A stretch of 64,000 nucleotides of DNA from contig QPGO01000036.1 in NCBI GenBank assembly GCA_008632985.1, positions 124,001 to 188,000 of the forward strand. The letters run 5' to 3'. Source of the DNA: Psammoneis japonica. Its lineage: Eukaryota. This document shows positions 2,304 through 40,699 of this stretch, piece by piece. A model generated the notes under the pieces. It had not been told where the DNA came from, made no database searches, and saw nothing but the letters and a program-made list of their open reading frames with translations. Position 1 is the stretch's first letter. Each line of letters begins with the position of its first letter. Made by a program: the position numbers and the translations under genes.

Positions 2304-2653
2304 GCTTTCAAACAAGCACTATTCATACCTCTGCACTACTCTCTAGCTAGTGGGTAAAATGACAGCCTGCAGGTCCAGCTGGGGGTTCATTTTTGCAGGG
2401 TCGCAACTTCATGCAGACCGCGAAGAACGGACAGATGAACCCCAGACGCAATAAGCGAGCACGTACGCACGCACAACCATTCTTTCATTCACGTAGTCAG
2501 GACCATCGTTGTTCTTTTGTTGATTTCTTCGCATTATTCGATAGCCGACCGAAAGACGCAGACGATATGACTATGTACAAGCCTCTTATGTTATAAATAT
2601 GAATAGCTTCAAACTCGGGGAGGCCAAATCCTAGCCGAACGCTGAACCGTAAA

Positions 2654-6859: not shown

Positions 6860-7574
6860 ACGGCGTGGAGATTGAATATTAGAGAGTCTCTTCTTTCTGC
6901 TGTTGCTCTCAGTTGTTGTGCTGCATGTTGCATCTTCTATCTTCTATCTCGCTTGAGCGTCGCGAGCGTTGGCGATGAATAAGCGCGCCAAAAGTTTCTG
7001 TGGGGGCCTCGTACTGTACTACGGTGTCCTACAGCGTGATGCGCACAGTACCGGTAGGTGGGGGGGCACAGGACATGAGCTCTGCAAGACTTGCAGGGCA
7101 GTCAAGTCTCAATGTGGCTGTTCTGGGTGTCGCCACTTGCAAGGAGAATCGCAGGCGGGGGCGGACGAAAGTGCAAAATGTACATACTTCTAGAAACCAT
7201 TGCACAGACAGACCATCACCACTTCAACTCTCCTTGCAAGTGGTGACACCCAGGAGTTCTCCTGACACTCAGGGGCTTTGGCAACAACTCTTCTGGTGCA
7301 GTCATGACGACAGAAGGTTGGTTGCTCTCGACACCATTTTGGGCATTCTTGTTCATCTCAACAAGGTGCAAAACATGGGCCGCCAGCCTTGCACTCTCGG
7401 GATTGGCTGGTGTTGCACCATGGACAGAGAGAGTGCCTCTCTGCTGAGAGACGAGCCATGTGTTTTCTCGGTGATCATGCAGCCAGAGCAACAGAATCAG
7501 TGCAGCCAAACAGCATGAGAAGAGCAAGCATGGTGAGGGAGGCCATGCAACACAGATGTTCTTTGCAAGACAGA

Positions 7575-7780
7575 GGCCATCATTCTCAACATGCAAACAA
7601 GTCCAAGTTTTTCACAAAATTGAATGGCTGCATTGTCAAAGGCAAAGGCATGAAGACAGAGGGTGCCACACGAAGGATCCTTTTCAACCATGTCAATGCA
7701 TTTCTCAACCAGGATCATTGCCAAACCTGAGTGCCAAAATTCAGATCAGGGTCACAATGCATGGCAGCTTGTTGGTGCCA
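7575..7780 (-). pseudogene. Decayed NAA60-like GNAT N-acetyltransferase fragment inside a TpA-depleted island
   Basis: CIVTL...EFWHSGLAMILVEKC...CGTLCLHAFAFDNAAIQFCEKLG resembles YIMTL...G.A...LYLHV...N..AI.FYEKLG with Tyr to Cys changes. Stops and frameshifts on both sides. Confidence 0.7.
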
Positions 7781-8146
7781 TCTGTGGCTCCTTCCCGTGT
7801 CACCCAACATCACATCCCGAAAAAGTCGTGATGGCAAGACGTGCTGCTCTGACAGAGTCGGTGATGTCCGAATCAAGGTTGTGGCTTTGATCGACAAGCA
7901 CAGCCACCATGCGTTCATCATTGCATTGTGATCAAGTGGACAGTGGTGATGTGGTTTCTGCTTTATGTCGATGAATGGCAAGTGACGGCAGGACGATGCG
8001 TTCACAGCTTGTCGTTTTTGGCTGACAAACAGAGAAAATGAGAAACGGAAATGGTGTGCAAGAGTCGAGCCGCTCATCCAGAAATGCTAGGGCCCCTAAG
8101 TATGGCTTGATTGCCTATAATGTTTCCAACATCTTGTCTGAATGGA

Positions 8147-9583
8147 TCATGAATTCAAAAGTCCTTCTCCCAACAAAACCAGATCAGGCACAATGAGACA
8201 AACTGAAATGGTAGCTAGACAGTAGAGGGCCGGGGAACCACCAATGAGTCTGCCGGGCATGAGATCGTCCTTGTTTTCCTTTCGTAGGTTGATCACCGCC
8301 AATGCTGGAAGGATTCCGTAAAGCGAGACACCACCAATCAGCCCGGCGTTTTCAAGGGCGCCGAGAAAGGCATCGGGGTAGACGCAGGCGAGAACAAGTG
8401 GTGGTGCCAATGCAAGACTTGCAGCTAGTAGCCTGGGAGTCATTGCCTCTTTGTATTGTGAGGACTCAACCTCACTCAAATCTTGTCTCGTAGTGGTGAT
8501 GGCGTCTTGAAAAAAGTCGACGAGAGAGACCGACGCACCAGCCATGGAGGATCCAATGGAACAAGCACTAAAGACTTCCACCAAATCCTTTACAATAACA
8601 CCGCCAACGTCACCAAGTGCTTCCACTACTTGCATCTTAGAACCCCCAATAGAATCATCGAAAGGAACAACGCCTAGAAAGACTGCCTCCCAAACACAAT
8701 ACATAGCGAGCGGAATCAGGCTACCAATCAATATGGCTTGTCGTGTTCGCAGAGGGTCGCTACCAAGGTAACCAAAAAGAGTTGGAACGACATTCTGAGC
8801 GCCAAACGAAAGAATTCCAATCGAAATAACTTGGGGATACACCGTTGTCCAGTCCGTCCTGGACAAATTGTCGAGTACAATTCCAGACAACGAGACTGAA
8901 ACGAGAGAAACGAATGATGCAACTAATCCAGCCACCAAGACTCGATTGACGAGATCTACTCGATTTGTTCCAAATATGGAGAGAGACGCAAAGAATACCA
9001 TAAACAAGCCGCTTCCGACAGATGCTTGTAAATTTAAACTCAATACTTCATCTGCTGCTTGTGACAACAATTGTCCTCCCTCCGACGTGTATGCAACCAC
9101 AATCGACGTGAGCAAGAACCAAAACAGCAGTCCCGTTGCAACTTCTCCTACTCGTCCGAGCGCTTGTTTGGTAATACTCAAGAATCCAGTTTGTGGCTGC
9201 TTGCTGGTCTGTGAAACCACCCATGTAGCTTCGAGCGTGACGAACGAAGTGACAATCGTAAAAAGCCAACAAATAACCAGACTGGAAACGGAGGGGACGA
9301 AACCAGCAGGTGCTGTTTCTGCCGGCAGAGCCAGCATGCCAGCCCCGATAGCCGTTCCAGCAAACAGAAGAGAAGCCCCCAAAACTGAGCCTGTGTCATC
9401 GTTGGATTCTTCAGAAACCATGTGTAGCCCTTTCTCACCCATCACTCGGCCATGCTGATGAAACGAAAGCGCACTCGATGCAGGGACATGTCGAATGCCA
9501 GCTGAAAACGCACAAACGCCATTCAAAGCGCAGAGAATGATAAAGGAAACTATTGTAATCGACAAAGAACAGTGCCACTTCAT
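8147..9583 (-). CDS. Aromatic amino acid (TyrP/Mtr, HAAAP family) permease, probably plastid-targeted
   Basis: GASLLFAGTAIGAGMLALP family motif and many TM helices. Signal peptide followed by VCA-FSA (ASAF-like). Intronless 478 aa ORF. Confidence 0.9.
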   Translation of the reverse strand: MKWHCSLSITIVSFIILCALNGVCAFSAGIRHVPASSALSFHQHGRVMGEKGLHMVSEESNDDTGSVLGASLLFAGTAIGAGMLALPAETAPAGFVPSVSSLVICWLFTIVTSFVTLEATWVVSQTSKQPQTGFLSITKQALGRVGEVATGLLFWFLLTSIVVAYTSEGGQLLSQAADEVLSLNLQASVGSGLFMVFFASLSIFGTNRVDLVNRVLVAGLVASFVSLVSVSLSGIVLDNLSRTDWTTVYPQVISIGILSFGAQNVVPTLFGYLGSDPLRTRQAILIGSLIPLAMYCVWEAVFLGVVPFDDSIGGSKMQVVEALGDVGGVIVKDLVEVFSACSIGSSMAGASVSLVDFFQDAITTTRQDLSEVESSQYKEAMTPRLLAASLALAPPLVLACVYPDAFLGALENAGLIGGVSLYGILPALAVINLRKENKDDLMPGRLIGGSPALYCLATISVCLIVPDLVLLGEGLLNS

Positions 9584-10090
9584 GAGTCGTATCTTGTAGG
9601 CTTCGTACTGGCATCAGCTACTTCTAACAACCAGCACCTACCAATCACTGCTGATTGCTGATGTGGAACGCGTACCTACCCTTGCCCCTCGCGCGCCCGC
9701 GCCACAATCGTTTCCAAATTGGCGGTGGGACCCATTCGAATCATCACATACTGTGTAGAGTTGTAGTTTTGATGACGACGACTCACCCTGCAAACGACAG
9801 GAGGTTTTAGGAAGAAGATGGGGGTCCGTCCCATCAACTCCTGAGCGCGCCTACGATGGTATACCCGCGTAGGACTCACTGTATTGTCATTGGCCTCGCG
9901 CCCAGATTCATTTCCTGGTCTTCTCCGAGAAACGTCGGAAAGGCATAGTACAAGGTCTTCTCCGTAAGAGTGTTTAAGGAATTAAAATACTAATTGTTCT
10001 CGCCGGGCTGCATCAAGATACTATTATTTATGATACATTTACGCAGAACTCATCCTTGGTGTACATTGATTGGAACCAGAACCCTCCTAC

Positions 10091-11821
10091 TTAGCGACGA
10101 ACAGAACAAAAGACGGGCACGTCGTCGCTGGGCCGTTGACCTGCCGAGGCATGCTTGACATGAAGCTCGTAACCAGGCTTCCAGTGAAACTTAATGTCAC
10201 GAAGCAGCGTAGCAAGGACAAGAACAGCCTCTTGCGTTGCAAACCTTTGTCCAGGACACGAGCGTCCTCCAGTGGAAAACGACAAGAATGCGTCTCTGTT
10301 GCCTTTCTGAACTTTGCTGCTGCTCTCGTCCTCCTGTTCCACCCATCGCTCCGGCAAAAACTGCGTCGGCAGGGGAAAGTTACGTTCATCACGATGAATT
10401 AAATAGAATGGAATATATGTGTATGTTCCAATGGGGAGAGTGTACTTGTTTTCGCCCGTACCCACATCAACGGGCTTGGTAAGGGTGCGAACCATTCCCG
10501 GCAAACTGGGGTACAACCTGTAATTGTGTAAAAGGAGGAAACGTAAATCCGATGAGTCTTTGCGCACCGCTTCAGAGGATCCGATTGCCCATTTCGACTA
10601 GAAAACAAGAGCGCCGTACATGGCGTCACAGCAAGTCAAGACAACAGACCTTAGTGCTTCTGTTACAATGGCGGCACAATACGTAAGCTTGCCAGGGTCG
10701 GGAACTGTTTCCTTGTCCGGCCAAACGCTCTGGATTTCTTCTAGTGCCTTGCGCTCCACCAATGGATTACGGGCTACTTCCAAAATGGCATATACCAAAG
10801 CCAACGCCGTCGTCTCGTGCCCCGCAAAGAGTAGAGTCATGAGCATGTCGGTCATGGTCTCTTCCACAATCTGAGCCGTCACATCTGATTCATTGCCCTG
10901 TAGAAGGTCTTCTTTTGCCTTTAGCAAATGATACAATAGGTCATGCTTATCGGAAGCCGCCCCACCATTACGAAGACGTTCCTGAACACACCCCTCAAGA
11001 AAATCTCGAATGTGCTTGCGGCATTTGCGATACTTCTTGTTTCTTTTCGTCGGCGTATTGTAGAAAAAGCCAGTAAGTGGGCTGCTTACTCGTCGATCGT
11101 ACTCTTCGCTCATGAATTGGAAAGCCTGAGCAGTCGGATGAAACTCGAGTCGCTTGCAGTTTTGAAAATCAAAATCGATCGCTGACCTTCCGAAGACATC
11201 TAAGGCTACCATTTTCATCAGAGGTAGAAGGTCCACCTCAAACTGCCCATCTTCAGTCGAAGAAGATTCGCACTTCTTAATCAGCGATGTCGCCAGATCA
11301 CGAGCAACTTGGACAGAATTGATCTTCCCGTTCAACATTGTTTGAGAGCCGAGAGATCGAACAATAGCCGATCGATGGAACTTCCATTCCTTATCTTCCA
11401 GAACTAAAATATTTCGTCTTCCAGCGAGCATGTCAAGGTGTTTACGAATAATGGTCGGCATATTCATGCGGTTGGGTGTTGAGTGAAGAATTGCTCGGGC
11501 GTCTTGATAACGAAGAACGGTGACAGTACTTGTTCCAAAATACCACATTGCTGTCACTCCATATGGGTTAGCATGATCGCGGCACAGGGCTGCAAGAGAA
11601 TCCTCAATGTCAATGTTTCGATCCTCCACATGGCCAATCAACCAGTGTGAATCCGCAGCAGGTGGACAGGGGAGCCCGGGGAGTGGGGATTCGCTGTGTT
11701 TTGCCTTTAGCTTCAAATACATGCAAACCAGCGCTGAGGACGACAATGCCACAGCCCAAAATAGGGAAGATTGCTGCTGCGCATACCCTTGCATGGCTAA
11801 AAGAACCGAAGGCAGCGCCAT
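10091..11821 (-). CDS. Cytochrome P450 (2 exons)
   Basis: I-helix FAGHETT, ExxR (EALR-LYP) joined by intron 10518-10649, PERW, heme motif FSTGGRSCPG, N-terminal TM anchor. Confidence 0.95.
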
Positions 11822-11902
11822 GTTGACAGCTAGAGCCGAAGATGAAATGCGACGCAGAACGCCAGATGGTAGGGCCTATGTTCGTGTTCTGTGCGGTGCT
11901 GC

Positions 11903-11916
11903 GTACTGTACTGTAC
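11903..11916. promoter_or_regulatory. GTACTGTAC palindromic motif (overlapping tandem) upstream of P450
   Basis: The same 9-mer occurs at 7011, 33754 and 56577, each in 5' intergenic DNA. Confidence 0.4.
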
Positions 11917-11996
11917 GCGTGGTGCATGAGTGCATGAGTATCTTCGCTGACTGACTCAATGTCGAGGCGATGACCGGATGACCGTTCGACAGGCAC

Positions 11997-12172
11997 TGCA
12001 AGCTCAAGCTGAGGTTGATGTCAAAACAAAGAAGTGAGTAGACCGAAGAGAGGGAGAGCCTAAGCGTCAGCGAGCGCTGGCGAGTGCTGGCGAGCCGCCT
12101 CTCAAACGGCTACGTTAATCCAATGTACAAAATTAATGCCACACATCAGAAGCGTGTGAGTGAGTTGCTGCG
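11997..12172 (-). repeat. Gypsy 3' LTR
   Basis: TGCAAGCTCAAGCTGAGG...GAGTTGCTGCG aligns with 17280-17453. Adjacent to the PPT. Confidence 0.92.
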
Positions 12173-12373
12173 CTCTTCCCTTCCATGATCCGAAAGAACT
12201 GGAGGATCATGCAAAGGGCCAAAACCAGGGACCAAAACCCAAAAAATCACAACAGCAGGAGGAAACCCAGGTGTTGGGAAGAAAACCCCCTGATCAACCA
12301 CGAAAAGGAATCAGGCGCCAAATGTTGAGGCGCTCAACCACATGAGGAGCTCGACGAAGCGAAGGCGTGCCAC

Positions 12374-15300
12374 TCACATGCACTTGAACAACAGGACAAG
12401 GGCCATGAGCACGAGGCTCAAGTCTGGACGGGTCAACCGACTTGATTGGAACTTGATCACCCACTTGACAATCGCAGGATCTTCTCTTGGCATTGGCTCT
12501 TCGGAATTGTCGTTGATCAGCGTCTGGCGATGGCCTTGGATCGTCAGCAAGTCTGCCAGCACAGGGACACCTAGGATCATGTCACGTCCAAACACCACAG
12601 CACCTGGTGAAGTCTGCAAAGAACGGGAAACAGCACAGCGAGTTGCACACATTGCAGTTGCCAAAGCATCGTCCACGAGGCCAGCTGCATCTTGAAGATT
12701 TTGAGGTGGGTTGGAAGCAATGAGCATGTGCAGTGTGTCACCGACGGTCTGGTGCATTCGTTCACAAATGGCATTGGCTTGAGGGTTGTACGAAGCAGTC
12801 GGCACATCATCAATTCCGGCTTGTTGCAACAGCATCTGAAAATCGTACCCGGTGAACTCGCCGCCGTCATTGTGGGTGCATCGATTCGGTCTGGGACAGC
12901 GTGCAAGCCAGCAGTTTTCAAATTGGTTGGCAACATGTCGGGCAGTTTTATTTTCAATTCTCACAAGTTCAACAACATTGGAGACAGGATCATGCAGGTC
13001 AATGCCCGAAACTCAATCTCTCCATTCGGCACCTTGATTTTCCACGGGCCAATGAGGTCAACCGCCACTTCCGACCAGGGAGTTAATGGAGCTTCTCGCT
13101 CGGGTGACTCTCCACAGCCAGGACCCAAAGTTTTGTTACGTTGGCAATCAGCACAAGAGTGTTCATCACACATGCAATGCAACCCAGGATGACAACAATG
13201 AGCCTGGATCGTTTCACGCATGCGCTGGCTTCCGGCATGGCCAAGGACGAGATGACACCACCGCAAGATGTCGGGCATGAGCGCAGTCGGCAAACAGATT
13301 TTCCACTGTCCTGGAGGATCATTCGGTCGCATGCAATGACACACAAGCGGTCGATCATTCACACATTCCACGAGGAAACGATCAGGGTGAGCAACGCGCA
13401 TCTGGTTCAACTGTTGGTCCTCGAACTGGTGCTCCTGAGTGCATTGTAACGTCATCGGATTCTGCATCTCTTGCATCGCAGGGCAATTCAAGAAAGAACC
13501 GAACAGTTCTGGCTCATCCACAAAGAAAGAGAAGAAGTGTGAGTGGCCTTCATTTTCAATGTTGCAACAACACTTAAATTGGCATGCGCCGAGCTCCAAG
13601 TCCTCATCGCGGAAATCCTCGACTTGGATGGTTCCTCACTCGGCACCAACTTCGAATCGAGCGGAGCAAAATCAACAACAGTTCCTTCACCCGGAGCCAA
13701 GCTCTTCCCTTCAGAGGGAGGATCCACACGAGGTAAACGAGAAAAACAATCAGCCAAGACATTCAATCGGCCTTCAATGCAATGAAACTGAGGAGAAAAG
13801 TCTTCCAGAAAGAGTCGCCAACGAAGTGCGCGCTGTGAATTCAAGGTGCGAAAGGCAAGGTTCTTGTGGTCAGTGAATGCATGCAAGTCGCCGCCAAGGA
13901 GCATCGATCGGTGTTCTCGGAAGCACATGACAATGGCCAACAGTTCTTTTTTGATCGTTGAATGGTTTTGTTGCGCCGCACTGAGCTTTCGAGACCAGCA
14001 TGCAACAGGCTTTCCATCCTGTACAATCACTGCGCCCATCTGGCAATCACTTGCATCGGTGCAGATGTGGAAGGGTTTGTTGTGATTCGGATGTGCCATT
14101 GATGTTTCGGCTGCTGGGACTGCTTTCATCTCATCGAACGCCGCCTGACATTCCGTTGTCCATGTCCATGAGCCTTTGCCTGTAAGATCTGTCAAGGGTT
14201 TCAACAGGTGAGAACGCCGAGGCCACACATTGCGACAATGCGTTGCAGCGCCAAGGAACGAACGAAGCTGCTTGATGTTTTCCGGAGGTTGCATTCGCAG
14301 GACAGCCTCCACCTTTTTCTTCCACGGACGAGTTCCAGTCGGAGTTAGCCAATGCCCAAGGAAATCCGTTTCCTGCACACACCATTCGCATTTCAAGGGA
14401 TTTACTTTGAACCCAGCTTCTTCCAAGCGTTGCAAGAGTTTGTCAAGACGGTCAAGGTGAATGTCAAAGTCGTCATCAAATTGAGCGAGATCATCAATGT
14501 GTGCGTCAACGTCCAAGTCGTGCACAGTTTTCTCAATCAAATGTTGCGCAACATCTGGAGCCGGCTTCAGACCCATTGCCAAACGGCAGCATCGGCACTT
14601 TCCAAAGGGTGTCACGATTGTCGTCAAGTCCTTGGAATCGTCATCCAATTCGAACACACAGTGCATCATTGAGAGGTCCAATTTGGTCAAAAACTTGCAC
14701 CCAGCTCTCTTCTGCAGCACATCTTGAATGATCGGTAAAGGATGAACCTTGCGCTTGAGGGCTTTGTTGAGTTCCCGAAAATCGCTGAGCCACCGCACTC
14801 GACCATCCTTCTTCGGCCGAATAAAAGCACCAGCAGCCCACTCCGTTGTTCCGGCTTCTTCAAGAACGCCAAGAGCCACCAAATGATCCAGTTCTTGTTT
14901 GAAAGTCTCGAGATCATTGTGCGGTGCTGCACGCGCTCGAGAATGGCAAGGAACAGTGTTGAGATCAACATCAAGGTGAACTTTTTCGCCAGCATGCTTG
15001 CCGAGAGTGCCGTCAAAAAGAGCAGTGTGTTTTTCCAATGCGAGGCGCAATTTTTCTTGTTGTTCGGTGGTGAGATGCTTCTGAGCCGATGCCACTTCAG
15101 AAGGGGACGTCTCCTCATACTTTGCATCGAGGATGCAGCTGTCCCACACATCATCATCGTTGGCCAGCTCATCAGTCAAGTCGTCAAGCCACTGCTGGGT
15201 GCCAATCCGATGGTTTCTTGGTTTCATTGCAATGCTTGAATTGAGCCACTTGACAATTCCGTGTTTGAAATCTAACGTGACACCTGCTCTCGCCAAGAAG

Positions 15301-15782
15301 TCCTGTCCAAGGATCACATTGCACTGGCAAGGTGAGTCAAACACATGCGCATGCATGCCATCAACACATTTGGTCTTGTCAAATTCAGGGAGCACCACAT
15401 CCTGCAGTCGAACGTAACGAGTGGATTTGAATTCTCCTGCCAACATCCGAAACTTTGCAACAATTGGTCCTGTGTCCTCCAATGCTGGCACCGCTCCAAC
15501 TGGCAACACCCGAGCATGAATCATTGAATGGGTTCCACCAGAGTCAAGTGACACCCGCAGCACGTGCTTGCTTTCCTTGTCTTGAATGAATTGCGCCGCG
15601 AATGAGGTTGCAGGGACCACATTTAAAGGTTTGGTTGGTTTTGTTTTTGGGGTTGGCACAGCGCACTCAAGTCCCACATCGTCTTCGTCATTCACAATGC
15701 AATTTTCGAAATCGTCATCATCAAACAAATCAGCAGCATGTGCACGACAATCATCAACGCAGTCAGTGCAGTCATCAAACAT
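12374..15782 (-). pseudogene. Gypsy pol (protease, RT, RNase H, integrase), frameshifted
   Basis: LDSGG protease. RT motifs PKKDGRVRW, DFRELN, HIDD. RNase H TDASD, KELLAIV, TDHKNL. Integrase HHCC and DLIGPW/DGGEF/ERMH. Split over ORFs 13488-15782, 12961-13599 and 12374-12964. Confidence 0.93.
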
Positions 15783-15839
15783 GTGGGAATCAGGAGCGAC
15801 ACACTCGGACGACAGCTCTTCAAGCTCATTGGGTCAGCG

Positions 15840-17068
15840 TCAACCGCATCCCGAGAAGCGACCACCAGGTCGAAAACTTCCCGCTCCACCTCGATGCTCA
15901 CGAGGCTCTCCCACAGAATCAAGATGATGGCTTTCAGCAGACCAATCATTGGGAGGAGCCATTCTGGCCGGATTGCCGCAACCGCCGCCATCTGCATTGG
16001 TTCGGGTGTCGTTTTGACATTGCATGCAGGAGCCACCATCTTCATGATGCTCGCCGCCATTGCCGCCAGAGTTGCAGTTTCCTTGACCGCCACAATTTTC
16101 TCGGCCACCACCATGACCTTGATGGCCATGGCCTTGCCAACCACGACCTTGATTTCCGCCATGGCCACAACCTCCACCGCGACCGCCACCTCGACCACCA
16201 CGGCCACCATGTCCACGACCGCCACGATCAGTTCTTGGACGGCAGTTGTTGGAGTCGGGGTTCATGACGCAATCTTTCCACTTGTGATTGTGAGTGTGCA
16301 ACGGACATTGGGATTCTGGGTCAACACGATTGCCTTTCTTCTTATTCGAGCGCCTTCATTCTGTCCATCTTTGTGCTTTTTCGACGTCTTCTTGTTCCCA
16401 TCCGCAAACGATTTCTCCGTGCTCATGTGCGTGACCATTTCTGCCAGTGCATCATTTCCAATCGTGCATCCTGCTCTTGTGTGCATCTCACGCCACGACA
16501 GAGGGAAGCTGTCGAAAATCATCTTCTTCTTTTGGTTCTGAGCAACAACTGGATTATTTCCCGGCAACTTGTTTGTGCATCGCACCAAAGTTTCCATTCG
16601 ATCTGCGTGTGCCTGCACTTCAACGTCATGCGGCTTTTTAAGTGCAAGCAAGTGTTCAATCATCGTGTCACGAGCTTCAGTTTCACAATGCGACAAATAA
16701 AAATGAGCCAACTCTTGGTCAAAATGAGCTGCCGTCTTCTGCGCATCCGGAATCGCCATGGTGAGATTGGACCATTTGTCTTCAGCTGCATCCGTCAACA
16801 CTTCTTCAAAATTGTCAAACAATTCTTCTCCTGTGGTGAACTCGAGTTTTGCAGCCAGTTTACGAAAACGATCTTCCACAAACAACAACGCTTCAATTCC
16901 ATCACTTCCGTCAAAACAAGGGCACTTTTTCGTACGCGTGCTTCCATCATCATGCGATTGAGTCAATTTTACGAGTTCCAAATCCGAGTGAGCAAATTTC
17001 GCAGCATGCAAAATGCATGGTTCCTCAAGGCTCTCGCGATTGCTCATCAGGCCAAGTTGGTCCACCAA
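15840..17068 (-). pseudogene. Gypsy gag-like ORF with Gly/Arg-rich C-terminal region
   Basis: CFDGSDGIEALL...FEEVL.D.A...W gag-like ORF 16262-17068, frameshifted into HKWKDC and RGG repeats. Lies between the 5' LTR and pol. Confidence 0.75.
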
Positions 17069-17279
17069 GAAACTGTTTTAAGTGCTCTACCTTCGATTCG
17101 AGTTGTGCCACTCAAATCGCCAAATCCTGTTTGCGTTGTTTTCGTGTCTCCTTTTCTTGTTTTTGTTCCAAAGCCTAGTTCGCTGCCTTTGCTCTCAAAG
17201 TTCTTTTCTCTTGTTTTGCAAGCCTGTCAATTGTGTCGTCATTTCTCATTCAGCTCTTTACAATCGACTGCAACTGCAG

Positions 17280-17453
17280 TGCAAGCTCAAGCTGAGGTTG
17301 ATGTCAAAACAAAAAAGTGAGTGGACCGAAGAGAGGGAGAGCCCAAGCGTCAGCGAGCGCTGGTGAGTGCTGGCGAGCCCTCTCAAATGGCTGTGTTCAT
17401 CTGACATCCAAAATTAACACCACACATCAGAAGCGTGCGAGTGAGTTGCTGCA
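17280..17453 (-). repeat. Gypsy 5' LTR
   Basis: Direct repeat of 11997-12172 with TG...CA ends. The plus-strand left edge could extend to 17275. Confidence 0.92.
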
Positions 17454-17601
17454 GGTGCAACACAGTGGCTGAAACCCAAACAATTGACATCATTTTGTCG
17501 GTCATTTTCAAAAATGTTGTGTGCCTCCAAACATGCTCATTGGAACTGTCAACCACATCACACCATCAGTGAATGAACACTGGTCTGAAGCTTCTTGCAT
17601 G

Positions 17602-17843
17602 AAAAAAGTCATTTGTGGAACCGGGCGCACTGTGTTCATCAACAAGGGCAATGAAAGACAGTGGTGACAACATCAGAGCGCGCATTCTGGTGATCAAGGG
17701 TGTCTTTCTCATGGCAAATTTTAAAAAAGTTGTTTGTGGAACCGGGCGCACTGTGCTCATCAACAAGGGCAATGAAAGACAGTGGTGGCAACATCAGAGC
17801 ACACATTCTGGTGATCAAGGGCATCTTTCTCATGGCAATTTTT
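17602..17843. repeat. Tandem duplication, 2 x 121 bp
   Basis: AAAAAAGT..TTTGTGGAACCGGGCGCACTGTG...TCTTTCTCATGGCAA starts at 17602 and 17723. Confidence 0.9.
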
Positions 17844-20090
17844 TTTGTGCTGTGGCAGGACACCAGATGTGCACATGGTGATTTTTTGTTGTCCACGGCA
17901 GTTGTCATTTTTTTTGCTGTGGCAACCCTGCCATCGCCGCGGGAATTTCTTCATCCATGAGATCCTCCCTTGTTCTGGCGCCTCTTTTCACAAACTCCAG
18001 ATTGCTGCAAAAAGTCAAAAATTGCAGTCATTTGCAAATTGGCATGTTTTGCTTTGATGCCCAGCATCGTTGAAAATGATGAAAGCTGCGCATTGCAAAT
18101 TAATTTCATCGGTGGTTGCTGTTTTGCTGCTTGCATTGCTTTGGCCAGGCATGGCCAAGAATGGCTCTCCTGCACCACATCTTTTTCTCCGCCTTCATCA
18201 TCCCCGCCGCTGGCAATGCTGTCTTCATCATCGTCCTCCATTTCTCCTCCTTTGCTCCTGTTCGCCACATCGTCCTCATCATCACTCGACAGCTCAATCA
18301 TTGCTTGCATCCTCTTCACCATCTTTGGCAGCTTTTTCTCCTTGGCTCCACTCTTGTTGCTCTTGTTGCAGTTTTTTTCCTTCTTGTCTTCCATGTGACC
18401 TGTGTCGAGCTGCATGCCTTTTTCACTCACCCTGTCATCTTGCACTTCTCCACGCAGCTCGTTGCATTCTGGGACTGCTGGGATGTTCTTGGAGTTGTCG
18501 GCAGGGCAGCATCCATGTTTGGGGCCTTTGGGCAGTTGCTGCACTGTGCAAAAAAAGAAGAACAACCAGCGCAATTCCCCACAGGACAAAAATCCGACGT
18601 GGGATTCTGTGCCAGGGCTGTGTGAAAATGACTCAATGTCTCTCAAACATTTCCAACTTGACTGACAGGCAGCCTGAGCCACGAAAAAAAGAAGAAAAAG
18701 CCAACTCCAAACTGCCAGTTGTTGTTGCATTGTGTGTGCATTTTGCAGCAAGGCAACGTGTGAAATCTAGAAGTGCCACATGTCAATTGCTGCCTGTGCA
18801 GCAAGAAGTGTGCTTTGTCACCCTCGCCGCACTGTTGAGAAAAAAATGTTCGAACCAAATTGTCTGGAGGCACTTGATTGTGTCAAGACAGGTGAAAAAT
18901 CATGGACAAACCACATTGCATGTGATGTTGTTTCAACCAGAGATTCTTTTGACATTTCAGCTGGACTTTTGAGGAATGTGATTGGGTTGGGTGTCTGTCA
19001 TCATTGTCATCATCGTCCCCCACTCATTTTCAGCATCTCTTTTGAACTTTTTGTGGATTTTGATCCACCAAATGGCTGTCTGTTCAATGATGTGAGTCAG
19101 CCGGGGTGGGGCCAGTTGGCTGCGCACATTTGGGTTTGATGTGACTGTGCAACTGGCCACACCCTGCAGGAAAAGCTGTTGGTGGTGCGCGAGCAGAAGC
19201 AACATCAAAGCAAAAAACACAGTGTGGGTCAAAATGTTGTAAAGTGATGCGAGAATGAGCAATGAGGAGAAACCCAACTTTGCCCAGGAAAGAAGCACAT
19301 CAATGTGTTGCCCAATCACTTTGATCTTGTCTGAAAATGCTTGCTCACAGATCATGAACGGCATTTGCGTCATTGCTTGCCATGGCATTGTTGTGTGGTG
19401 TCATGCGCTGTTGTTGTGCGCGAAGGACGGGGTTCTGTTTTACCCACAGTGAATCTGTTTTGGTCACAGCAGATGTTTCACCATGCCCAACTTGAAGACA
19501 TTTTGAGAAGCGCTTCGCAACAACTCTGTTCACACCGTTGAACATTAAAATTTTTTTGTGCAGATTCCGCAGCTGTTTTGGGGTGTTCTGTTGGACTTTT
19601 GAGTTGCCACATGCGCATTGCAAGATTCAGAAACTTCAATGACATGTGATGTCCCAAGAGACACACACAAATTTATCTTCCCTGCAGACCTTGTAGAATG
19701 TGTGCCAACGAAAATCCACTGCCTGTCAACTCACTCAGCAGCATTCCACGTGCATTCTACTTGCACCTCACACACGCACACACACCTGCACAGTCTGATG
19801 ATGCCAGAGACAGAGTCAACCGCATCAGGCGCAGCAGGCAGCAGCGGGGAGTTGCCTCAAAGTTGTTGAAACTGTGACTCAAATTGAAATGATGCACTCT
19901 TCAATTGCTTCACAAAACTTTGCAATGTCTGCATTGCGACACTGTTGGTGAATTGGACTGCACAAAATTTGGCCTGTTGCCCATCAAACATGTGAGCAAT
20001 GAACAATTGCACTCTGCAAACAAGTGGGCTCATTTGCACAGCTTTGTGGCTTTCGACAACAAGAAAGTCATCGCAGTGTGTTTGTCACCA

Positions 20091-20225
20091 AACAACTTTC
20101 AACAACTTTTTGTTGAAAGTGGACAACTTTCAACACTTTAGAAAGACGCAACTTTCAACAACTTTTTGTTGAAAGATGCAACTTTCAACAACTTTTTGTT
20201 GAAAGACGCAACTTCCAACAACTTC
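20091..20225. repeat. ~30 bp tandem array of hairpin-forming units
   Basis: Unit CAACTTTCAACAACTTTTTGTTGAAAGA(T/C)G contains inverted arms CTTTCAACA/TGTTGAAAG. Confidence 0.85.
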
Positions 20226-20971
20226 AACAGAAAACTCACCGGCACAAAAATCTGATTGGAAAAGCGACATCATCTGAGACAAGTGCACATGCATGACCGA
20301 CATTCATCATTGATGCAGCATTGGTGCCATTCGATTCTCAGTGGCGGTGCTGTCACCAACATTGTCACTTCTAAGTCCTTTGTTGATTTTAATGAGATGT
20401 GATGTGTTGAGCCATGTCCACACCTTGGTGTGACTGATGAAGTTGCTCATGACTTGGCGCTTTCATCTGAGGATGAAACCACCTGAGATGCAGCATGCTG
20501 GGACCCAGACTCAGAATGGCAGATGGGATTGCTGGGCTCAGAGGATGGAGCAGCCGATGGTTTGGTGCTGGGATGATTCTCACTTGGAGCTGCAGACAGC
20601 GCCTGACGATGCACTGGGTGAGATTGGAGGCAGATCACTGCCAGGTGGGAGCTTTGCTTGGTGTGAAGCACATTAGATGGTGGCTCACTTGGAGCCATTG
20701 AAGGTGCTCCACTGCTGGCAGATTTCAAGAAATTGACAATTCTGAAACTGCTGCAGCCAAAAATTCTGAAACTGCGCCACAAATTGTCAAACTGCTTCCA
20801 CCAAAAACCACCAAACCAGTGCTGAACTGCTGAGCCAACTTCACGCTGCTCTTTTGGGCTTTGGCAAGGTGTGCATTGCTTGTGCTGTTCTCATCACGAT
20901 CTTTGACTTTTGTGTCACCCCACTGCAGTGCAACCCTAAATGAGAACAATGTTTTTGCACGTGTCGATGTG

Positions 20972-21108
20972 GTTTTTGTTACAAAAGTGTAACTTTGAAC
21001 AGATTTTTGTTAAAAGATGTAACTTTGAACAGATTTTTGTTGAAAGATCTAACTTTCAACATCTTTTTTGTTGAAAGATCTAACTTTCAACAACTTTTTG
21101 TTGAAAGT
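20972..21108. repeat. Second ~30 bp hairpin tandem array of the same family
   Basis: Units TAACTTT(G/C)AACA..TTTTTGTT(A/G)AAAGAT repeated about 4 times. Confidence 0.85.
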
Positions 21109-21416
21109 CAGTTGTCCGTTGAGTTGTGACCATAAACTCAACATGCAACATGTGTTGCTGAATGTTTTCATGCAAGGAAAGAGCAATTTCAATGTCTTCA
21201 ATGGACATGCGTTGCAGCGTGCAAAAATGTCCATTTCACCAGAGTGAGTTGTCAGCGGGAATCAGATGCACCATGCCTGCATGCATGAGCGTGACGGGAC
21301 AACTTCAACTTTTAACAGATTTGAGGCGACTCCCAGCAGCAGCAACAGACAACAACAACGATGGCAGTGGAAACATCAGCAGGGACGTTCACGACAAGGA
21401 TGCCGGCAGAGATGCC

Positions 21417-23434
21417 ATGAACCAATTGATGGCAAATGTCTCATTGGCACCAACGACACCACCAGGACAACAAAAGAAGTCGACGACCGGCACTGGGACC
21501 AAGAAGAAGCCACGGAGGAGTCGATCCAGTTCCCGCCCGAGTGCTCTGGCAGCGACAAAAAAGAAAGGTCAGAGATCCACATCAATGCCGCCATCGTCAA
21601 AGCTGAAGCAATTGAAAAACAACTCAGAAACAATGGTGAGCAGCCACTGTTCACGGACGGAACATCATTGACATTGCATTGAACGATTCACTTCCCTCAC
21701 TTGTCTTTCCTCTTTTTTTTCTTTGATGTCTGCGTCCGAACCACAGGCTTCAGACCTTGCTGTTGAGGAGTTGCTTGGCCTGTCATCATCTGAGGCCGAC
21801 GCCCTTGGACGGCAAGAGATCATTGGCCAGCTGGTGATGCACCGTGACAGCATCCTCAACACCTCCATGCTCTGGTCTGGTGACAAGGTGTGCAAGCAGA
21901 TCACTCTAAAGATTCGCTGTCTGAAAATGTGCGTTCTGCAGAAGGCTGGGACTGTTCAGCATGGCGCCGGAGAGGCCCCCGCAAACATTTGCTGTGGGAA
22001 GTGGTCCAAGGACAAGGACAAGATCCGGAATCTTGTGTTCCAGCCTGAACCATTTTTGGGGTGCAATTTTGCAATGCACGGGGGTGAGATTGTGCAGGTG
22101 CTGGCAGAAATTCCGACGGAAGAAGACGCCAGAGCCACCCTTGGTGATGAACGTTTCAAGTTTCACAAAGGCGGAACTGTCAAGTGTCGGCACTGCTGTC
22201 CGCGGGACCTCAAGAACAATGCCGAGCTGAAGAACAAGATCACTCACATCATCGGAAAAGGATTTTGTCACCGGGACGATGAAGACCCAGAGTTCTCATT
22301 CAACGATGCGTGCATCACCCACAACTTGTTGTGCAAGCACAAGAGTGCGTCCCATGCGATCACAGTTGAGCTTGTCACTGATGAAATGGGGCCACACGGG
22401 ATCATGTGATGAAGATGTGTCACTTGGTTGGGGTTGTTCTTTTGATGGACGACATTCAGGCACACAAGAAGGAGATCCAACAAGGTCATCCCGACAAGAT
22501 TCAACAGGTCTGCCAGAAGAATTTCAGGGTCTTCAACTTAGTCCAGATCACCATTCTGAAGGAATGCTCGCACCAACGGTTGGGTTCTGTTGTGATGGAA
22601 GCTGTTGAACATGCCTTGAAGGCATTGGCAAATCCAGCCGACCACAAAGTGCCACCTGCCAGTTTCTTATTCTGGGTTGGTTGTGCCAAGAGTTTCTACA
22701 AACGTCTTGGTTGTTCTGCCAATCCAGGCTCTGATGGGGTCCCCGATGCTTGGCGAAATGTGTTTGAGTGTCCTGTGAAGCTTTCCAAATGGAAGGATGG
22801 CCAAGTTCAGGACATGACGGATCAAGAAAACCAAGAGATTTTCTTCTGCAAGTCATTCACCTGCACCAATCGGAACAAGTTTGGTGACCTTCAAAATTGG
22901 TGTCAAGATGATCCTGCCCGTCAACATCTCACTGTCACACACAGGGTTGGAGTGTTGAAGGAATGCTGCAACTTTGGTCTCAGCCGTGGCAAGCGTGCTG
23001 AGACAAAATCCATCAAAAATCTGGGGCACATTGAGGAATTCCCAACTGTTCATGATCATCGCACGGTTTGCGGTGTCACTGAAATCGATGTTGACATCAA
23101 ACAGCACACAGCTGCAAATGTCAACAGTCATGTCGAATGCAAGTGTGAGTTTGTCAAGAATTTTGTCTTCATCTGTGGCCAACGGACTGACGATGGTGGG
23201 AGGGACTTTGGGTTCAACCTCAACATCAAGGTGGCTGCTGAAGTCAAGGCGGAACACATCATCCACCATGGCCACACGCAGAATGGATTGACAGTGTCTG
23301 TCTGCGGCGACATCGTCAAGGGTGGCAACACCGCCATGCTGATCCAACTTAAATTGCCTTGGTTCAACTCGAAGGAAAGAATGAAAGTTGATCGGGATTG
23401 GCCTGCTGTTGGTCGTAAGATGGTGGAGAAATGA
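21417..23434 (+). pseudogene. TpA-mutated intron-containing gene with a GNAT acetyltransferase-like domain
   Basis: In-frame GT-AG intron 21636-21746 with a pyrimidine tract joins ORFs 21162-21671 and 21723-22409. Frameshift near 22406. Then LVGVVLL...LVQITILKECSHQRLGSVVM...AKSFYKRLGC (GNAT motif A and FYxxLG). Start uncertain. Confidence 0.6.
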
Positions 23435-26307
23435 GTCGTTGATTGCATCTTCAATTTGGTTGATCAGGCTGTGTTGGTTGCTTGGCAAAGAACAGAATTG
23501 TCGATTGCTTCTTCAATTGAGTGCAACAAATCACAATGAATCGGCCATGGTGACAGTGATGGAATGATGGGTGTCAGTCTGATGGGTCGATTGCAGCCTG
23601 CAATTTGAACTGGGAACTGGCACAAATGCAGGATGCAAAAGAAATGCATGTGTGGAATTCATTTGCATGGAGCCAGAGGGCAGCTGACACACATCGGATG
23701 GACGGTCGGTTGGTTGATCGCTGTGTGTTTGTGGGTGGGTGTTTGAAATGGTTGTTGAAAGTGACATGAACAGCAAGGAATGTTGCTTGCATCCATGGGG
23801 CACAGATTTTCATCTAAAGCTGATTGTTGATTGGAAACTTGCCCCATGACGAATGCACATTAGACTGATGTGTGTTCTCTGTTGTGTTGCTGCTCTCCGA
23901 AGCAGCATTGAACAACAACCACGCATTGACAAGACAACTCCCAAGTCTCAATTTGCATTCGTCAATTGTTGTTAGATTCGAATTTTGTTGGAGAAAGTTG
24001 AGATGCAAATGCATTGCACTGAGATGGTCCGCCAATGCCCAAATCAAAAAGAGGTGGAAGATTCCACTGCTGGCACCACCGCACCATCACTGCTCCAGCC
24101 AACAGTGCAACACACATTTTCAAAAACAAAATGTCTGACAAACAATCCCATTCTTCTTTTGCGTCATACATTGTTGATGCTGTCCCAACCATGTCGCAGC
24201 ATGTGGCATTGGTGACTTTCCACCCGACCGCAAACACACACACATGCACGTGCAAAACACAGAGAGATCAGAAAGAAAAGACAACAAGACATTGTGCACT
24301 TCATTTTTGACAATGTAGATGCTGACAAAAAACTTCTGATGGCGGCAACGTTGCCAGATGGTGGTGAAGGACACTCGTGTGCAGGATTTGTTGTCATTGA
24401 GATGATGACTTGAGACAAGACATCGGTGGACTGATCTTGCTGATCAGTGAAAAAGATGTCAATGGAATCACACTCGATTGGATCAAGGCAAACCATGTTG
24501 ATTGAAGGTTGTGGCAATGGGACGAGCAGCTGCTTGCATCACATTGTCACCCGACCTTCAAATTGACCAACAGCGAACACTGGACAAACATGGATGTGGC
24601 GCAATCCAACCAAGCCATCCTTGAACAACAGTGCATTGACATGATGACACCCCAAGTCTTGATGCGTGTGTCAATCTTCATTGACGTCAAATGAAGCAGA
24701 ACCAGAGATGGCCATGCACCAGCAAGATGGTCACAGGCAGCTGTGAACAAGGTGAAAGATTTCAACACAACCAGCTGCAGCCAGCATGCAGCCAAAAAAA
24801 AACCTTGTCCGGCAACAACAACAGCACCGTCACAAACATTTCCCTCTCGTCAAATGACATCCCGTCGGTGTGTTGATTCCGCACTGACAACTGGGATTGC
24901 TGTCACGTTAAAGGTTGTCTGCACATCAGACAACCCCCTGACACCAGAGTCCGGCAATTTTTTTATGTTTGTGGCTGGCCAAAGGAAAAGGGAAAAAAGG
25001 AGGGGATTCAACCTTTCGATGCATGCAAAAATTGACCATGCAGCAGGGCCAGAGATTCATTGGCTTCTTCTTTGTGGTCTGGGGTGGTTGCTGCAGGGGC
25101 AAAAGCTGGGTGCACATTGCAACTTCAGGGTGACTGTCAGCTCAAAGGCTGCATCAGGGGAGGGCCAGGGAGAAGAAAAACATGCAAGCTTGGCTGCTTG
25201 CTTTTCAAACCCTGGTGTGTTGGTCATGAGCAAGCTTTCGAGAGAAGAGTGAGAGAGGTTCTGGCTGCATTGCCATGCAGAGAGTCTTGTTGCTGGCACA
25301 TCTCAGGTTGTGTGTTCAGCATGCTCAATGGCTCTTGGGCCCAACAACCTCACTCAGAGCTTTTTTGTGCCAGCAACAAGCTCAAAGTTGTCTTGCTGTG
25401 CTGACAAATGACAAATGAGCTTGAGGAGGCTTGTCTGCAATTTTGCAGCTGTGACATGGGGGCACCAATGACATGAGCTCCTGCCAGCTCCAGCCTTGGC
25501 TCAGGGCTTTTACAACACTGGTGTCTCTTGCTCAACTGCAGAAAAGAGCTGTGGCATGTGAGGTCAGGCAGCCCAGGAGCCAGGCTGTCTGCACTCCTTT
25601 TGCAGATGGAACAAAGGGCCATCATGACTGCACAATGAGGGCAATTTGTGTGGTTGTGCTGGTGTTCTGAAGGTCTGGGTGTGCCCCTGGGAAGCTGCAC
25701 ATGAAGAACTCAGCATTGCCACCAGCACCATGAGTGCATTGCCGCCCTGCTCTGGGAGCCTGCAAACTCAAGTTTGGTGTCTCAGCTGGCATCGTTTTTG
25801 TGCACGATTTGGGTCGCATGTGGCTGGAACAGGTCATTCGTGTGCCAACAAGCCTCAAGCTGTGGGTCATGAAAAAGCCACCAACCTCCCAACCAGCTGC
25901 AGAGCCAGCCAAACCATGCCACTTGAGGGTCCAAGGTTCAAAACAAGAGGGTTGCATCAACTCTCTTCTTGTTTTGTGTGCTCAAGAGCCTTTTGTTCTC
26001 TCTGCAAGTCTTGTTTGGTGTGTGCTCACTTCTGTTGAGTTTGGATTGAAGAAAGGAGGCTGCAAGTTCCAGATGGGTTGATTTGCCTTTGCTGCAAAAG
26101 GTGTGCATTGTCCATTTTGATTGGACGCCCATGCAGAGATCTGAAAACCAGCATTGTTGCAAGCATTGAATGCAGAGAGAGAAAACCAATTGACATTTTG
26201 AAATGAACATGCAAATGCTTGGCAGCTGGCGCAGAAATGAAAAGATGATTTCGAATTTGACATCCTGTTTTGTCCATTCGATTTTGCTCATGCCCAAAAC
26301 TCTGCAT

Positions 26308-26428
26308 CGTTGACCATTTGGCTGTCTTTGTACCAAAGCAGAAATTTTAATTGGGGGATGTTGTCAACCATTTGGCTGTCTTTGTGCCGAAGCAGAAATT
26401 TTAATCAGGGAATGTCGTCAGCCATTTT
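26308..26428. repeat. 54 bp tandem repeat (about 2.2 copies)
   Basis: (TG/CA)ACCATTTGGCTGTCTTTGT..C.AAGCAGAAATTTTAAT at 26311 and 26365, partial copy at 26419. Confidence 0.85.
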
Positions 26429-27683
26429 TGGCTTGCTTTGGCTTGAAGTCATTTTTGTTGATGTGGGTTGTGGGCTTGTTGTTAACTGGCCATGATCCTG
26501 CTGAAATCTTTGCCAGAGTCCCTCCCTTTTTCTGCACACACTTGCTTGAACCGGCAACCCGGAAATGGGTTGAGGTCAGTGCGGTGGTTGCTTTACGAGG
26601 TCGCCCCACCTGCACTCGACACACCCGACAAACACTCAGACAAACAAACCAGCAAACCCAAAAAACAAACCTGCACAAGGCAGCTGCAAAGCAACTCACA
26701 CTGGGGCCCCTGTTGAGCACAGCACTCAACTTGGACAACTGATGGGGCACTGCTCCTCAGCCAGCCACGATGTTTTGGGCTGAGTTGCCACCCACATTTT
26801 TCCTTCCTGCGTGACTTGGTTGCCGGTCAGAGCCCACTGTCTCTCTCTCCCTACAGTTTTGCACTTCTCCACCTGCCAAAAGTCTGTGAGAGGGGCCCTG
26901 GCAGTGCCAGCTGGCAATCATTGAGCTGTGTTGCACTGCATCTCATTGACAACAGTCGCGCTGCATTTTTTTGCATGTGGTGTTGCATCGTCAGCTGCTT
27001 GCTGGGTTTTGCAGTGTTGGCTGAAACAATGTGACTTTTTTAGCATGCGCAGCTGGCAGAGCTGGCACACACAATGTCATTCTTTCAATGGGTGTCAACC
27101 AAGTGACTTGAGCCCAGTTTTCTCTTTTTTCAAAGCACAACTTTTGCCGCCAGCCAGGGAGGCATGGGGGGGAAATGAAGCAGCAGTGTGGTCACCAAAA
27201 AGTGCCGCCGTGCATGTGCAGGATTTCTAAAATGTCTTTTGGATTTTTGAAAGTGCACAAAGGGCATTTAGAAATGCCACCACGAAAACTTGTTCAACTG
27301 CCCTGTGTTGCTGGTGCCCCCTTGAGCACACAAACCCAGCTGCAAACAGCAGAGCAGCACACACACCCCGGTGCAAGCAACCATTGCAAGCACAAGCAGC
27401 ACATGAGCAAATTGTTCACACAAACATGTTTTCGTTGAGGCTCAAGCAAAAACCACAGGGATGCACAGTCAAGCCCAAACAAGACGCAGGACTCTGTCGA
27501 AGCCCTCCGAGTGTCTCCCGTCCTTGCGTCGTCCGATGCCTCTTCCTCGATCTGCTCCGATCTCCGCCGATCGATAATCTTGAAGATTCATTCTTGATGC
27601 GTTGGCGTTGACGTTGACGCGGGTATGGACATTGATAGATGCATGCATCGGCATCGCAAAAGAAATAATAAACGAATCACTGT

Positions 27684-40138: not shown

Positions 40139-40699
40139 AATGCTGTGAATGGCTACAAGAGTGTGCTTGATTGCAACAAGTTGGTGCTAAATAGCAAAAA
40201 TGCGCTTCTCGTCACCACAACGCTCAAAGGCACCATCATGGGGTTGGGGGGAAACTGCCATGCCGGTGCCGGTGCTGTACACCCTCTACGTGCGCGTGAG
40301 GAGGGGGGGGCAGACGCGGAGCAACGGTCGTGCCTGAGTAGAGTCATGCAGGCAGGAAAAGGGATGGATTTCGAATTGGGGTTGGAGAGTTGGGATTGTA
40401 GTTTGGCAGAGTAGCGGGTCAGTTAGTCAGCGAGCGATTTGGTGATCGCAAGGCTCAGGCTTTGAAGGCCCCATTGTGATGGAGCAGAAGTGGTGTGGTG
40501 GGTCAGACCGAAGCATCAGGTGGATGTGTTTTGCCAAGCGGCCGTGGCAGTGGGTGGAATGGCAGATGGTGACAGTTGGGCACAGGTGCACGTGGCATGG
40601 GCAGCTGGGTGTTGAAAGGAGGATTGGCACATCAAAGCTCGGGCCATCGAAGACAACACCGATCCGCAATCTTTCCAGCCCACCAGCATCTCCAAAAGT

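Follow-up and report, generated by a model that had tools for sequence, protein, structure and literature searches.

The question raised by this locus is how two short sequences bordering a retrotransposon came to differ. In a window of 64,000 nucleotides from the Psammoneis japonica contig QPGO01000036.1 (positions 124,001 to 188,000 of the forward strand; all positions below are those of the window), a degenerate Ty3/gypsy element with long terminal repeats (LTRs) is preceded by GGCAC and followed by GGTGC. A reading made from the sequence only had proposed that these 5-mers are the two copies of one target-site duplication (TSD), GGTAC, mutated in opposite ways, that the mutations took place in chromosomal DNA after insertion, and that they spread a few bases past the edge of the element. 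Inspection of the letters at both junctions bears out the two 5-mers. A post-insertion process of the chromosome that turns TA into CA or TG is well supported, on evidence stronger than the TSD itself. The full reading, in which the domain harbouring the retrotransposon underwent DNA-level TpA hypermutation after insertion and the GGTAC duplication was most likely altered with it, is given a probability of about 0.72. The features on which this answer depends are collected in Table 1.

The element is oriented on the minus strand between two direct repeats which, aligned over about 176 nt, differ by 17 substitutions and one 2-nt indel (about 90% identity). On the plus strand both repeats have a TG start, and their ends read CA (right) and CG (left). 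The polypurine tract abuts the left LTR and so sets its inner edge; the alignment of the repeats then places the outer edge of the other LTR at 17453. The pol domains follow one another in the order reverse transcriptase, RNase H and, downstream, an integrase zinc-binding domain; the Integrase_H2C2 match of the frame 12961-13635(-) lies slightly below the Pfam cut-off of 25.5 (25.2 bits, E 1.8e-5). The closest homologue of the 781-aa pol frame is 68% identical to it, its top relatives are Ty3/gypsy polyproteins carrying rve, and its sole named relative comes from a diatom. The LTR pair, the polypurine tract, the RVT_1, RNase H and integrase domains and the rve-bearing relatives thus identify a minus-strand LTR retrotransposon, the coding region of which is interrupted by at least one frame change. 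No primer-binding site of a recognisable tRNA type was found after the 5' LTR, and a short-word BLAST against 78 related metagenome loci gave chance hits only. In the contigs of runs X1 and X2, word depth climbs from 58 to about 2300 at the left LTR and amounts to about 2500-3500 in the element interior. The two runs represent one sample, possibly the source of the window itself, and the support they give is not independent.

The direction of the mutations has been read from conserved codons. The 781-aa frame was aligned with 60 homologues, and the columns in which at least 80% of the homologues have Tyr were retained as Tyr columns. At the 17 columns of this kind the element has Cys (TGY) nine times, His (CAY) six times, Arg (CGT) once and Tyr once. 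The other conserved residues are retained (Gly 23/23, Trp 11/11, His 8/8, Arg 17/18). Among 289 conserved columns 44 are changed, 23 of them by TA-loss types (16 Tyr, 2 Leu>Ser with TCA, 3 Val>Ala with GCA and 2 Thr>Ala after a T) and 5 by CpG-loss types. Sixteen of the 17 retained Arg are encoded by CGN codons and one Arg became Gln, so that CpG has been lost at 1 of 17 Arg codons versus TA at 16 of 17 Tyr codons. Tyr represents 0.3% of the 781-aa frame versus 3.5% in 120 homologues, the YxDD catalytic box of the reverse transcriptase reads HIDD, and none of the 224 residues encoded by the integrase-remnant frame 12961-13635 is Tyr. The loss of conserved Tyr codons to Cys and His gives the direction TA>TG and TA>CA, the reverse of fungal repeat-induced point mutation (RIP), and the nine Tyr>Cys set against six Tyr>His indicate that both strands are affected. 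The change is therefore from TA to TG or CA, on both strands. A similar Tyr scar marks P0039, a 751-aa protein from a JGI source with 61% identity to the pol frame. Of 20 conserved Tyr columns it covers 17, which read Cys in 8, His in 4, Phe in 2 and Tyr in 3; Tyr makes up 0.8% of its residues.

The timing of these mutations is given by the LTRs, since every insertion starts out with two identical LTRs. Among the 17 substitutions that now separate them, 11 fall in TA-type dinucleotides (two TA/TG, one TA/CA and two TA/TC sites, plus three CA/TG sites with two substitutions each), 5 in CG-type dinucleotides (four CG/TG sites and one CG/CA site, the terminal one) and 1 elsewhere. For the terminal CA/CG site, CA is probably the ancestral state, judging from the canonical LTR end. 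One TA is left in the right LTR versus six in the left one. LTRs of a single insertion that differ at TA-type sites must have been changed in the chromosome after insertion; with the loss of the Tyr codons, this upholds the proposal that the mutations arose in integrated DNA. These changes have been far faster than the background, which amounts to about 1 of 174 sites. Both LTR-LTR transversions sit at the A of a TpA, at 12121 and 12131 (TA, left LTR) versus 17398 and 17408 (TC, right LTR). The copy was also compared with the majority of its family at 40 of the 473 places where the two differ, a scope that holds for all family comparisons given here; the majority has A at 17398 (10 contigs). 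In the same comparison, 8 private A>G or T>C changes lie outside TpA (12547, 13439, 15199, 16164, 16260, 12570, 13499 and 13981), and in 6 of the 8 the changed A precedes a T. Two Asn>Ser changes (AAT>AGT) at conserved columns agree with these A-before-T changes, and A followed by T may be a weaker, secondary target context.

The mutated state is not specific to the element. The observed/expected ratio (o/e) of TA is 0.34 in the whole window and its distribution is bimodal: where genes are present the ratio is about 0.57 for TA and about 1.0 for CG, and in the other stretches it is 0.04-0.27 for TA with CA and TG at 1.5-1.9. At a resolution of 250-500 bp, five TA-poor domains were delimited (1-2000, 7251-8000, ~12135-27500, 40500-42750 and 45600-55250), the borders of which are sharp within 250 bp. 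Per kb, the domains (30.0 kb) and the unique DNA (33.8 kb) contain, respectively, 4.0 and 38.7 TA, 25.6 and 57.4 CG, 107.7 and 72.8 CA, and 105.4 and 74.0 TG. The element stands at the left end of the third domain with a TA o/e of 0.11, versus 0.42-1.08 in the 78 related metagenome elements. Two of the five domains hold retroelement domains, and the host genes between the domains have normal TA. To the right of the element, the Pfam scan of 17.4-28 kb gave 0 matches in 27 frames and no retroelement domain; this non-retroelement DNA (17.5-27.5 kb), like that at 45.6-55.25 kb, is equally TA-depleted. CG is strongly depleted in the right flank. Word depth over 200 bp of this flank (17603-17800) is 71, i.e. 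near single-copy, the unique left flank being at 58. The idea that the right flank is an older copy of the same element was rejected, the 271-aa frames 16262-17077 and 17954-18766 being unrelated. The mutations of this locus are thus specific for TpA, act on both strands and on integrated DNA, are confined to domains and coexist with a slower CpG decay.

With this process established, the two flanking 5-mers can be considered. Enumeration of all 5-mers gave GGTAC and GGCGC as the only ancestors from which both flanks can be derived by TA>CA/TG or CG>TG/CA. Random pairs of 5-mers, drawn 200,000 times from the left flank (8001-11996) and the right flank (17454-27400), are compatible in this sense in 0.50% of the draws and identical in 0.10%. 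The match of the flanks exceeds chance, for one junction specified beforehand. The TSDs of Ty3/gypsy elements typically measure 4-6 bp, and at this junction the other lengths fail to match (4-bp pair GCAC/GGTG, 6-bp pair AGGCAC/GGTGCA). The CA-versus-TG difference of the flanks belongs to the same class as the three CA/TG sites of the LTR pair, of which CG ancestors predict about 0.15 (Poisson P 0.0005). At one of them, the family majority has A at 17403 (11 contigs, 650.8 of a depth of 688.3) with no change listed at 17402, so that the family has TA where the left LTR has CA and the right LTR has TG. In a tandem duplicate elsewhere in the window, 3034 aligned positions hold 81 CA/TG double sites versus 8 single sites of the TA/TG-or-CA type and 13 of the CG/TG-or-CA type; old duplicates in this window typically differ by CA versus TG. 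The GTAC context is efficiently removed in the domains (survival ratio 0.065).

From a prior TA:CG ratio of 0.67 in unique DNA and the post-insertion loss rates of the element's own LTRs, the odds of GGTAC over GGCGC are 8:1 with LTR-wide rates, 79:1 with the rates of the element interior and 2.4:1 when the low rate suggested by the outer left LTR is applied to the left copy, the central values being 2.4:1 to 8:1. If the duplication is a true one, GGTAC is probably its ancestral form. The proposed target GGTAC is thus favoured by the odds and stays unproven, GGCGC being equally fitting in form.

Several observations weigh against this conclusion and are gathered here. GGCGC is indeed compatible with both flanks, the odds fall to 1:1 with the most pessimistic rates, and at least 14 private CpG losses separate this copy from the family majority, which means that CpG decay is real in this element. 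The placement of the LTR edge is also debatable, and the caveat attached to it by the sequence-only reading is a real one: the two repeats are preceded by GCAC (11993-96) and GCAG (17276-79), so that three of the four bases outside the left LTR equal those beyond the inner edge of the right one. Because GCA is shared, the edge at 11997 depends on two things, its TG start and the end of a contig, which is consistent with it and no more. The X1 contig of the unique flank reaches 12026, i.e. the 30th nt of the left LTR, where a branch of contigs built from 31-letter words is expected if the shared sequence begins at 11997; the same end would also agree with an LTR that starts at 11993 and has a private base at 11996. 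The 5-bp compatibility of the flanks is seen only with the start at 11997.

On the left margin, TA density is normal up to 11939, no TA occurs in 11940-12038, six occur in 12039-12134, and then about one per 175 bp is found up to 17500. According to this distribution, heavy mutation begins inside the left LTR, not outside it. This LTR retains 6 of about 9 inferred TAs, both TAs of its outer 115 nt being intact, and mutation of the left 5-mer is consequently not especially likely. The 56 flank bases before the left LTR have no CA/TG excess by eye. The right 5-mer lies in a TA-poor domain that runs on for 10 kb, so that nothing there can be attributed to the element. Finally, no contig of X1 or X2 joins 11996 to 17459 as an empty site would (contigs compared with 11600-17800 at 80% likeness); this negative comes from one sample and from the rows listed and is no evidence of absence. 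The ancestral 5-mer is thus not observed. No usable TSD was found among the 78 related metagenome loci, most contigs of which end inside the LTRs, and the relative L059 has LTR-like repeats with flanks that do not match.

The claim that mutation spreads past the edge of the element is accordingly weak. The fading of mutation within the left LTR and the unremarkable flank speak against it, and, beside the 5-mers, a single further hint speaks for it, namely the difference at 11940, which is the only one in 427 nt of unique left flank between the window and the X1 contig and which may be a polymorphism or an assembly difference. The P450 frame, on the minus strand, ends at 11875; the promoter region of this gene would extend over the flank and the outer LTR, and it is plausible that the outer left LTR was partly spared by the open chromatin of the P450 promoter region.

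The other explanations of the flanks and of the TA-poor state have been weighed against the same data. If the target was GGCGC, ordinary CpG decay of a silenced element and its borders would explain the 5-mers: from methylated CpG, deamination of the top strand would have produced TG in the right copy, and deamination of the bottom strand CA in the left copy. This is rather unlikely, although GGCGC is the only other compatible ancestor. In its favour, unique DNA contains about 1.5 CG for every TA, GGCGC, its complement included, has 50 occurrences versus 37 of GGTAC, and CpG decay is seen locally, in the CG depletion of the domains, strong in the right flank, in the CG-type sites of the LTRs and in the private CpG losses. 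On the opposite side stand the slowness of CpG loss since insertion, as judged from the Arg and Tyr codons, and the loss of CG per LTR (about 0.1 in the left one, about 0.3 in the right one), which gives opposite changes in both 5-mers a probability of about 0.01-0.02 versus 0.04-0.2 for TA; besides, the three CA/TG sites of the LTRs are not CG-derived as a group, and one of them is TA in the family majority. The 5-mers could also be unrelated and alike by chance, the duplication having been lost by deletion or inter-element recombination, or the LTR edge being misplaced by 4 bp. Exact identity is limited to 3 of their 5 positions, the element is an old, broken copy, and the GCA before both repeats permits a start at 11993 that leaves flanks without a match. 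The low frequency of chance compatibility, the canonical TG..CA ends, the polypurine tract abutting one inner edge and the X1 contig end 30 nt into the LTR make this very unlikely.

Two further explanations concern the origin of the A-to-G changes themselves. Under ADAR-like editing, the element RNA would have been changed and the changes fixed via reverse transcription. ADARs prefer a 5' U, according to a preprint on Bigelowiella natans (bioRxiv 10.64898/2026.01.13.699255), and on the sense strand of the element TG (o/e 1.60) exceeds CA (1.33). This excess was nevertheless rejected as a strand bias, since intact relatives already have more TG than CA on the sense strand. RNA editing is refuted as the sole cause by the TA-type differences between LTRs of one insertion; the presence of both 9 sense-strand A>G (Cys) and 6 T>C (His) at Tyr codons, and a TA-poor domain that extends 10 kb past the element into DNA that is devoid of retroelement domains and has near single-copy depth at 17603-17800, point the same way. 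With the 81 CA/TG double sites of the non-coding tandem duplicate, they exclude it as the main cause too. ADARs are not known outside animals, and we consider this origin scarcely credible. An artefact of assembly or base calling at chemically modified bases is highly improbable too. Modified bases can give systematic consensus errors in some long-read assemblies, and the window does differ from run X1 at 11940. Yet the contigs of 31-letter words (depth about 58), which may be the assembly's own data and are then no independent support, reproduce both the left flank and the TA-poor right flank (151 nt, 1 difference), 445 of 2188 contig pieces are at least 99% like this copy, and the two LTRs have CA and TG, one each, at the same site within a near-identical context, unlike a systematic error. 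Fungal-type RIP was discarded on its direction, TA being depleted 10-fold and CA enriched.

We therefore retain TpA hypermutation of integrated DNA, for which the following course of events is proposed. The Ty3/gypsy element would have inserted about 120 bp upstream of a diatom cytochrome P450 gene, where older, degraded DNA had its left border, making a 5-bp duplication. The locus would then have come under a domain-restricted hypermutation of DNA in which TpA is converted into TpG or CpA (A:T to G:C, on either strand), alongside a slower decay of CpG to TpG or CpA. About 90% of the TA of the element would have been removed in this way, with nearly all Tyr codons destroyed and LTRs left that differ almost only at TA- and CG-type sites, and the GGTAC duplication would most likely have become GGCAC on the left and GGTGC on the right. 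The likeliest enzyme would be an adenine deaminase acting on DNA at TpA, with inosine read as G, as has been proposed for B. natans, and its targeting would probably depend on silent chromatin rather than on copy number. TpA is self-complementary, so that a lesion of thymine, for example a modified T mispairing with G, leaves the same record as a deamination of adenine; the two are inseparable from sequence alone. Tentatively, and with a likelihood somewhat below even, one may go further and see here an enzymatic diatom mutator of TpA in DNA, a reverse RIP targeted to chromatin domains, shared with B. natans and possibly old in the SAR (stramenopiles, alveolates and Rhizaria) clade. It would erase transposons independently of copy number beside the decay of methylated CpG, would still be active in culture (11940) and would reach host DNA at domain edges, including the target site and the promoter region.

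Table 1. Positions of the element, its flanking 5-mers and the surrounding domain in the window (a dot stands for no strand)
Feature	Position	Strand	Remarks
TA nearest to the element	11940	.	lies 57 bp away from the LTR; TA in the window, TG in the sole X1 contig covering the site (A versus G)
Left copy of putative 5-bp TSD, GGCAC	11992..11996	.	directly left of the TG start at 11997
3' LTR	11997..12172	-	keeps 6 TA and 11 CG; CG end where the other LTR has CA
TA-poor, CA/TG-rich domain	12135..27500	.	includes the greater part of the element and the 10 kb that follow on its right side
Polypurine tract (GGAAGGGAAGAG on the minus strand)	12173..12184	-	directly upstream of the 3' LTR
Integrase remnant, two overlapping frames (12374-13012, 12961-13635)	12374..13635	-	Integrase_H2C2 match
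781-aa open frame, reverse transcriptase and RNase H	13488..15833	-	RVT_1 1.3e-13, RT_RNaseH_2 7.2e-26, plus RT_RNaseH
271-aa open frame at gag position	16262..17077	-	placed by position only; no family match
5' LTR	17280..17453	-	TG...CA on the plus strand; keeps 1 TA and 7 CG
Right copy of putative TSD, GGTGC	17454..17458	.	directly right of the CA end at 17453

Other features of the window were recorded beside those of the element. Its host genes encode a Trp/Tyr permease, the P450, gyrase A, subtilases, a peroxidase and a Ysc84-domain protein, and the named relatives of the permease are all diatoms, at 51-58% identity. With the diatom relative of the pol frame, they mark the host as a diatom that has no close kinship with the sequenced Thalassiosirales. 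The Pfam scan of 77 frames in the other TA-poor regions matched only a DUF1995 host gene; this gene (44242-44976, minus strand, two frames) stands in an island of normal TA (43250-45500) between two TA-poor domains, which shows that host genes between domains are spared. The domain 1-2000 carries a copia-type reverse transcriptase frame (RVT_2, 370-1956) with 1.1% Tyr, a kept YTDD box and normal CG. At 46-55 kb, TA and CG are nearly absent over most of the length (0-2 and 0-3 per 250 bp, respectively), and the tandem duplicate aligned above is found there (45600-50950 versus 50950-55400, about 4.6-5.2 kb), with neither Pfam match nor coding signal. A 121-bp tandem duplication lies just right of the element (17602-17843), and two arrays of units of about 30 bp, TTTGTTGAAAG.TGCAACTTTCAACAAC-like, are situated 811 bp apart inside the TA-poor domain (20108-20254 and 20979-21126). 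Long unmatched open frames run on both strands of 12000-28000 and 40500-55250, for example a 350-aa frame at 16268-17320 on the plus strand, antisense to gag. The loss of TA removes the stops TAA and TAG, so that these frames are by-products and not genes.

The 120 TAs surviving in the 30.0 kb of domains are biased in context: survival is 0.61 for TTAA and 0.27 for CTAA/TTAG, and ATAT (0, with 88 on the expected scale), ATAG (0.008) and ATAC (0.017) are nearly gone. This bias is a possible fingerprint of the neighbour preference of the mutator, or of newly created TAs. Among the related metagenome loci, a microbial-mat contig (L076, TA o/e 0.42) has a repeat, 57-374 versus 5207-5526, whose two copies are separated by 23 substitutions, which include 7 double sites of the CA/TG type and 3 single sites at TA; this repeat lies in coding DNA of a related element and is bounded by Nextera adapter sequence, the contig being partly artefactual. 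Differences of the TA/CA or TA/TG type make up 5 of 7 end-repeat differences in L046 and 30 of 161 in L053.

If the proposed reading is true, diatoms, which are major marine primary producers, have a mutator by which TpA is eliminated from silenced DNA; it would not be confined to one chlorarachniophyte, and a widespread eukaryotic genome defence would operate with a chemistry (A:T to G:C) opposite to that of fungal RIP. Since 16 of the 17 LTR substitutions would stem from hypermutation, LTR divergence would be useless as a clock in such genomes, and degraded transposons, having lost their TAA and TAG stops, would yield long spurious open frames. TSDs and domain borders would become natural reporters of the reach of the mutator, and the context bias (TTAA kept, ATAT lost) would provide a testable specificity for its enzyme.

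These observations can be compared with the systems in which repeated or foreign DNA accumulates transitions. Fungal RIP changes C to T. In Neurospora it acts mostly at CpA and thus creates TpA. The diatom locus resembles RIP as a defence-like transition mutator that riddles transposons, is confined with little leakage and leaves a strong dinucleotide signature; it differs in that TpA is destroyed and in that the near single-copy right flank makes a dependence on duplication not evident. With the decay of 5-methylcytosine at CpG it shares the production of TG and CA from a self-complementary dinucleotide, and both are present in the same domains; CpG decay, however, cannot remove TA or turn Tyr into His or Cys, and is here about 16-fold less complete. 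According to PMC9998398, transposons are methylated in diatoms, which also have DNMT4 enzymes akin to fungal RID; the function of these enzymes is given as unknown. Retroelements edited by ADAR or APOBEC also have clustered transitions in LTR elements and a preference for neighbour bases. Such editing precedes integration, affects one strand and is shared by both LTRs, whereas here the LTRs differ, both strands are mutated and DNA outside the element is included.

The closest counterpart is found in B. natans. In mutation-accumulation lines of this organism, two integrated viral regions gained 231 mutations, of which 230 were A>G or T>C changes, every one of these at TpA, and the rate was about 1000 times the genomic one; reverse transcriptase and DDE domains were over-represented among TpA-depleted coding sequences, and the enzyme suggested was an ADAT2-like adenine deaminase (Mettrop et al., bioRxiv 10.64898/2026.01.13.699255). 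The available portion of that text makes no mention of diatoms, retrotransposons, LTRs or flanks, and no report of TpA-targeted hypermutation in diatoms was found in the literature searched. The signature appears to be known from this one preprint, and its occurrence in a diatom LTR retrotransposon, near saturation and with sharp borders, appears unreported in the same literature. B. natans is a chlorarachniophyte (Rhizaria) in which the events were seen de novo, whereas the diatom element offers a fossil record only; the viral regions of B. natans keep much of their TA (Rho 0.45), unlike the near-saturated loss seen here (o/e 0.04-0.11), to which a loss of CpG is added. The A>G and T>C changes at TpA are nevertheless of the same type, 16 of the 17 conserved Tyr codons of the element being changed and 15 of them to TGY or CAY. 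In both organisms TpA is converted into TpG or CpA on chromosomal DNA, in discrete regions of foreign or mobile origin, with TA depleted and CA and TG enriched.

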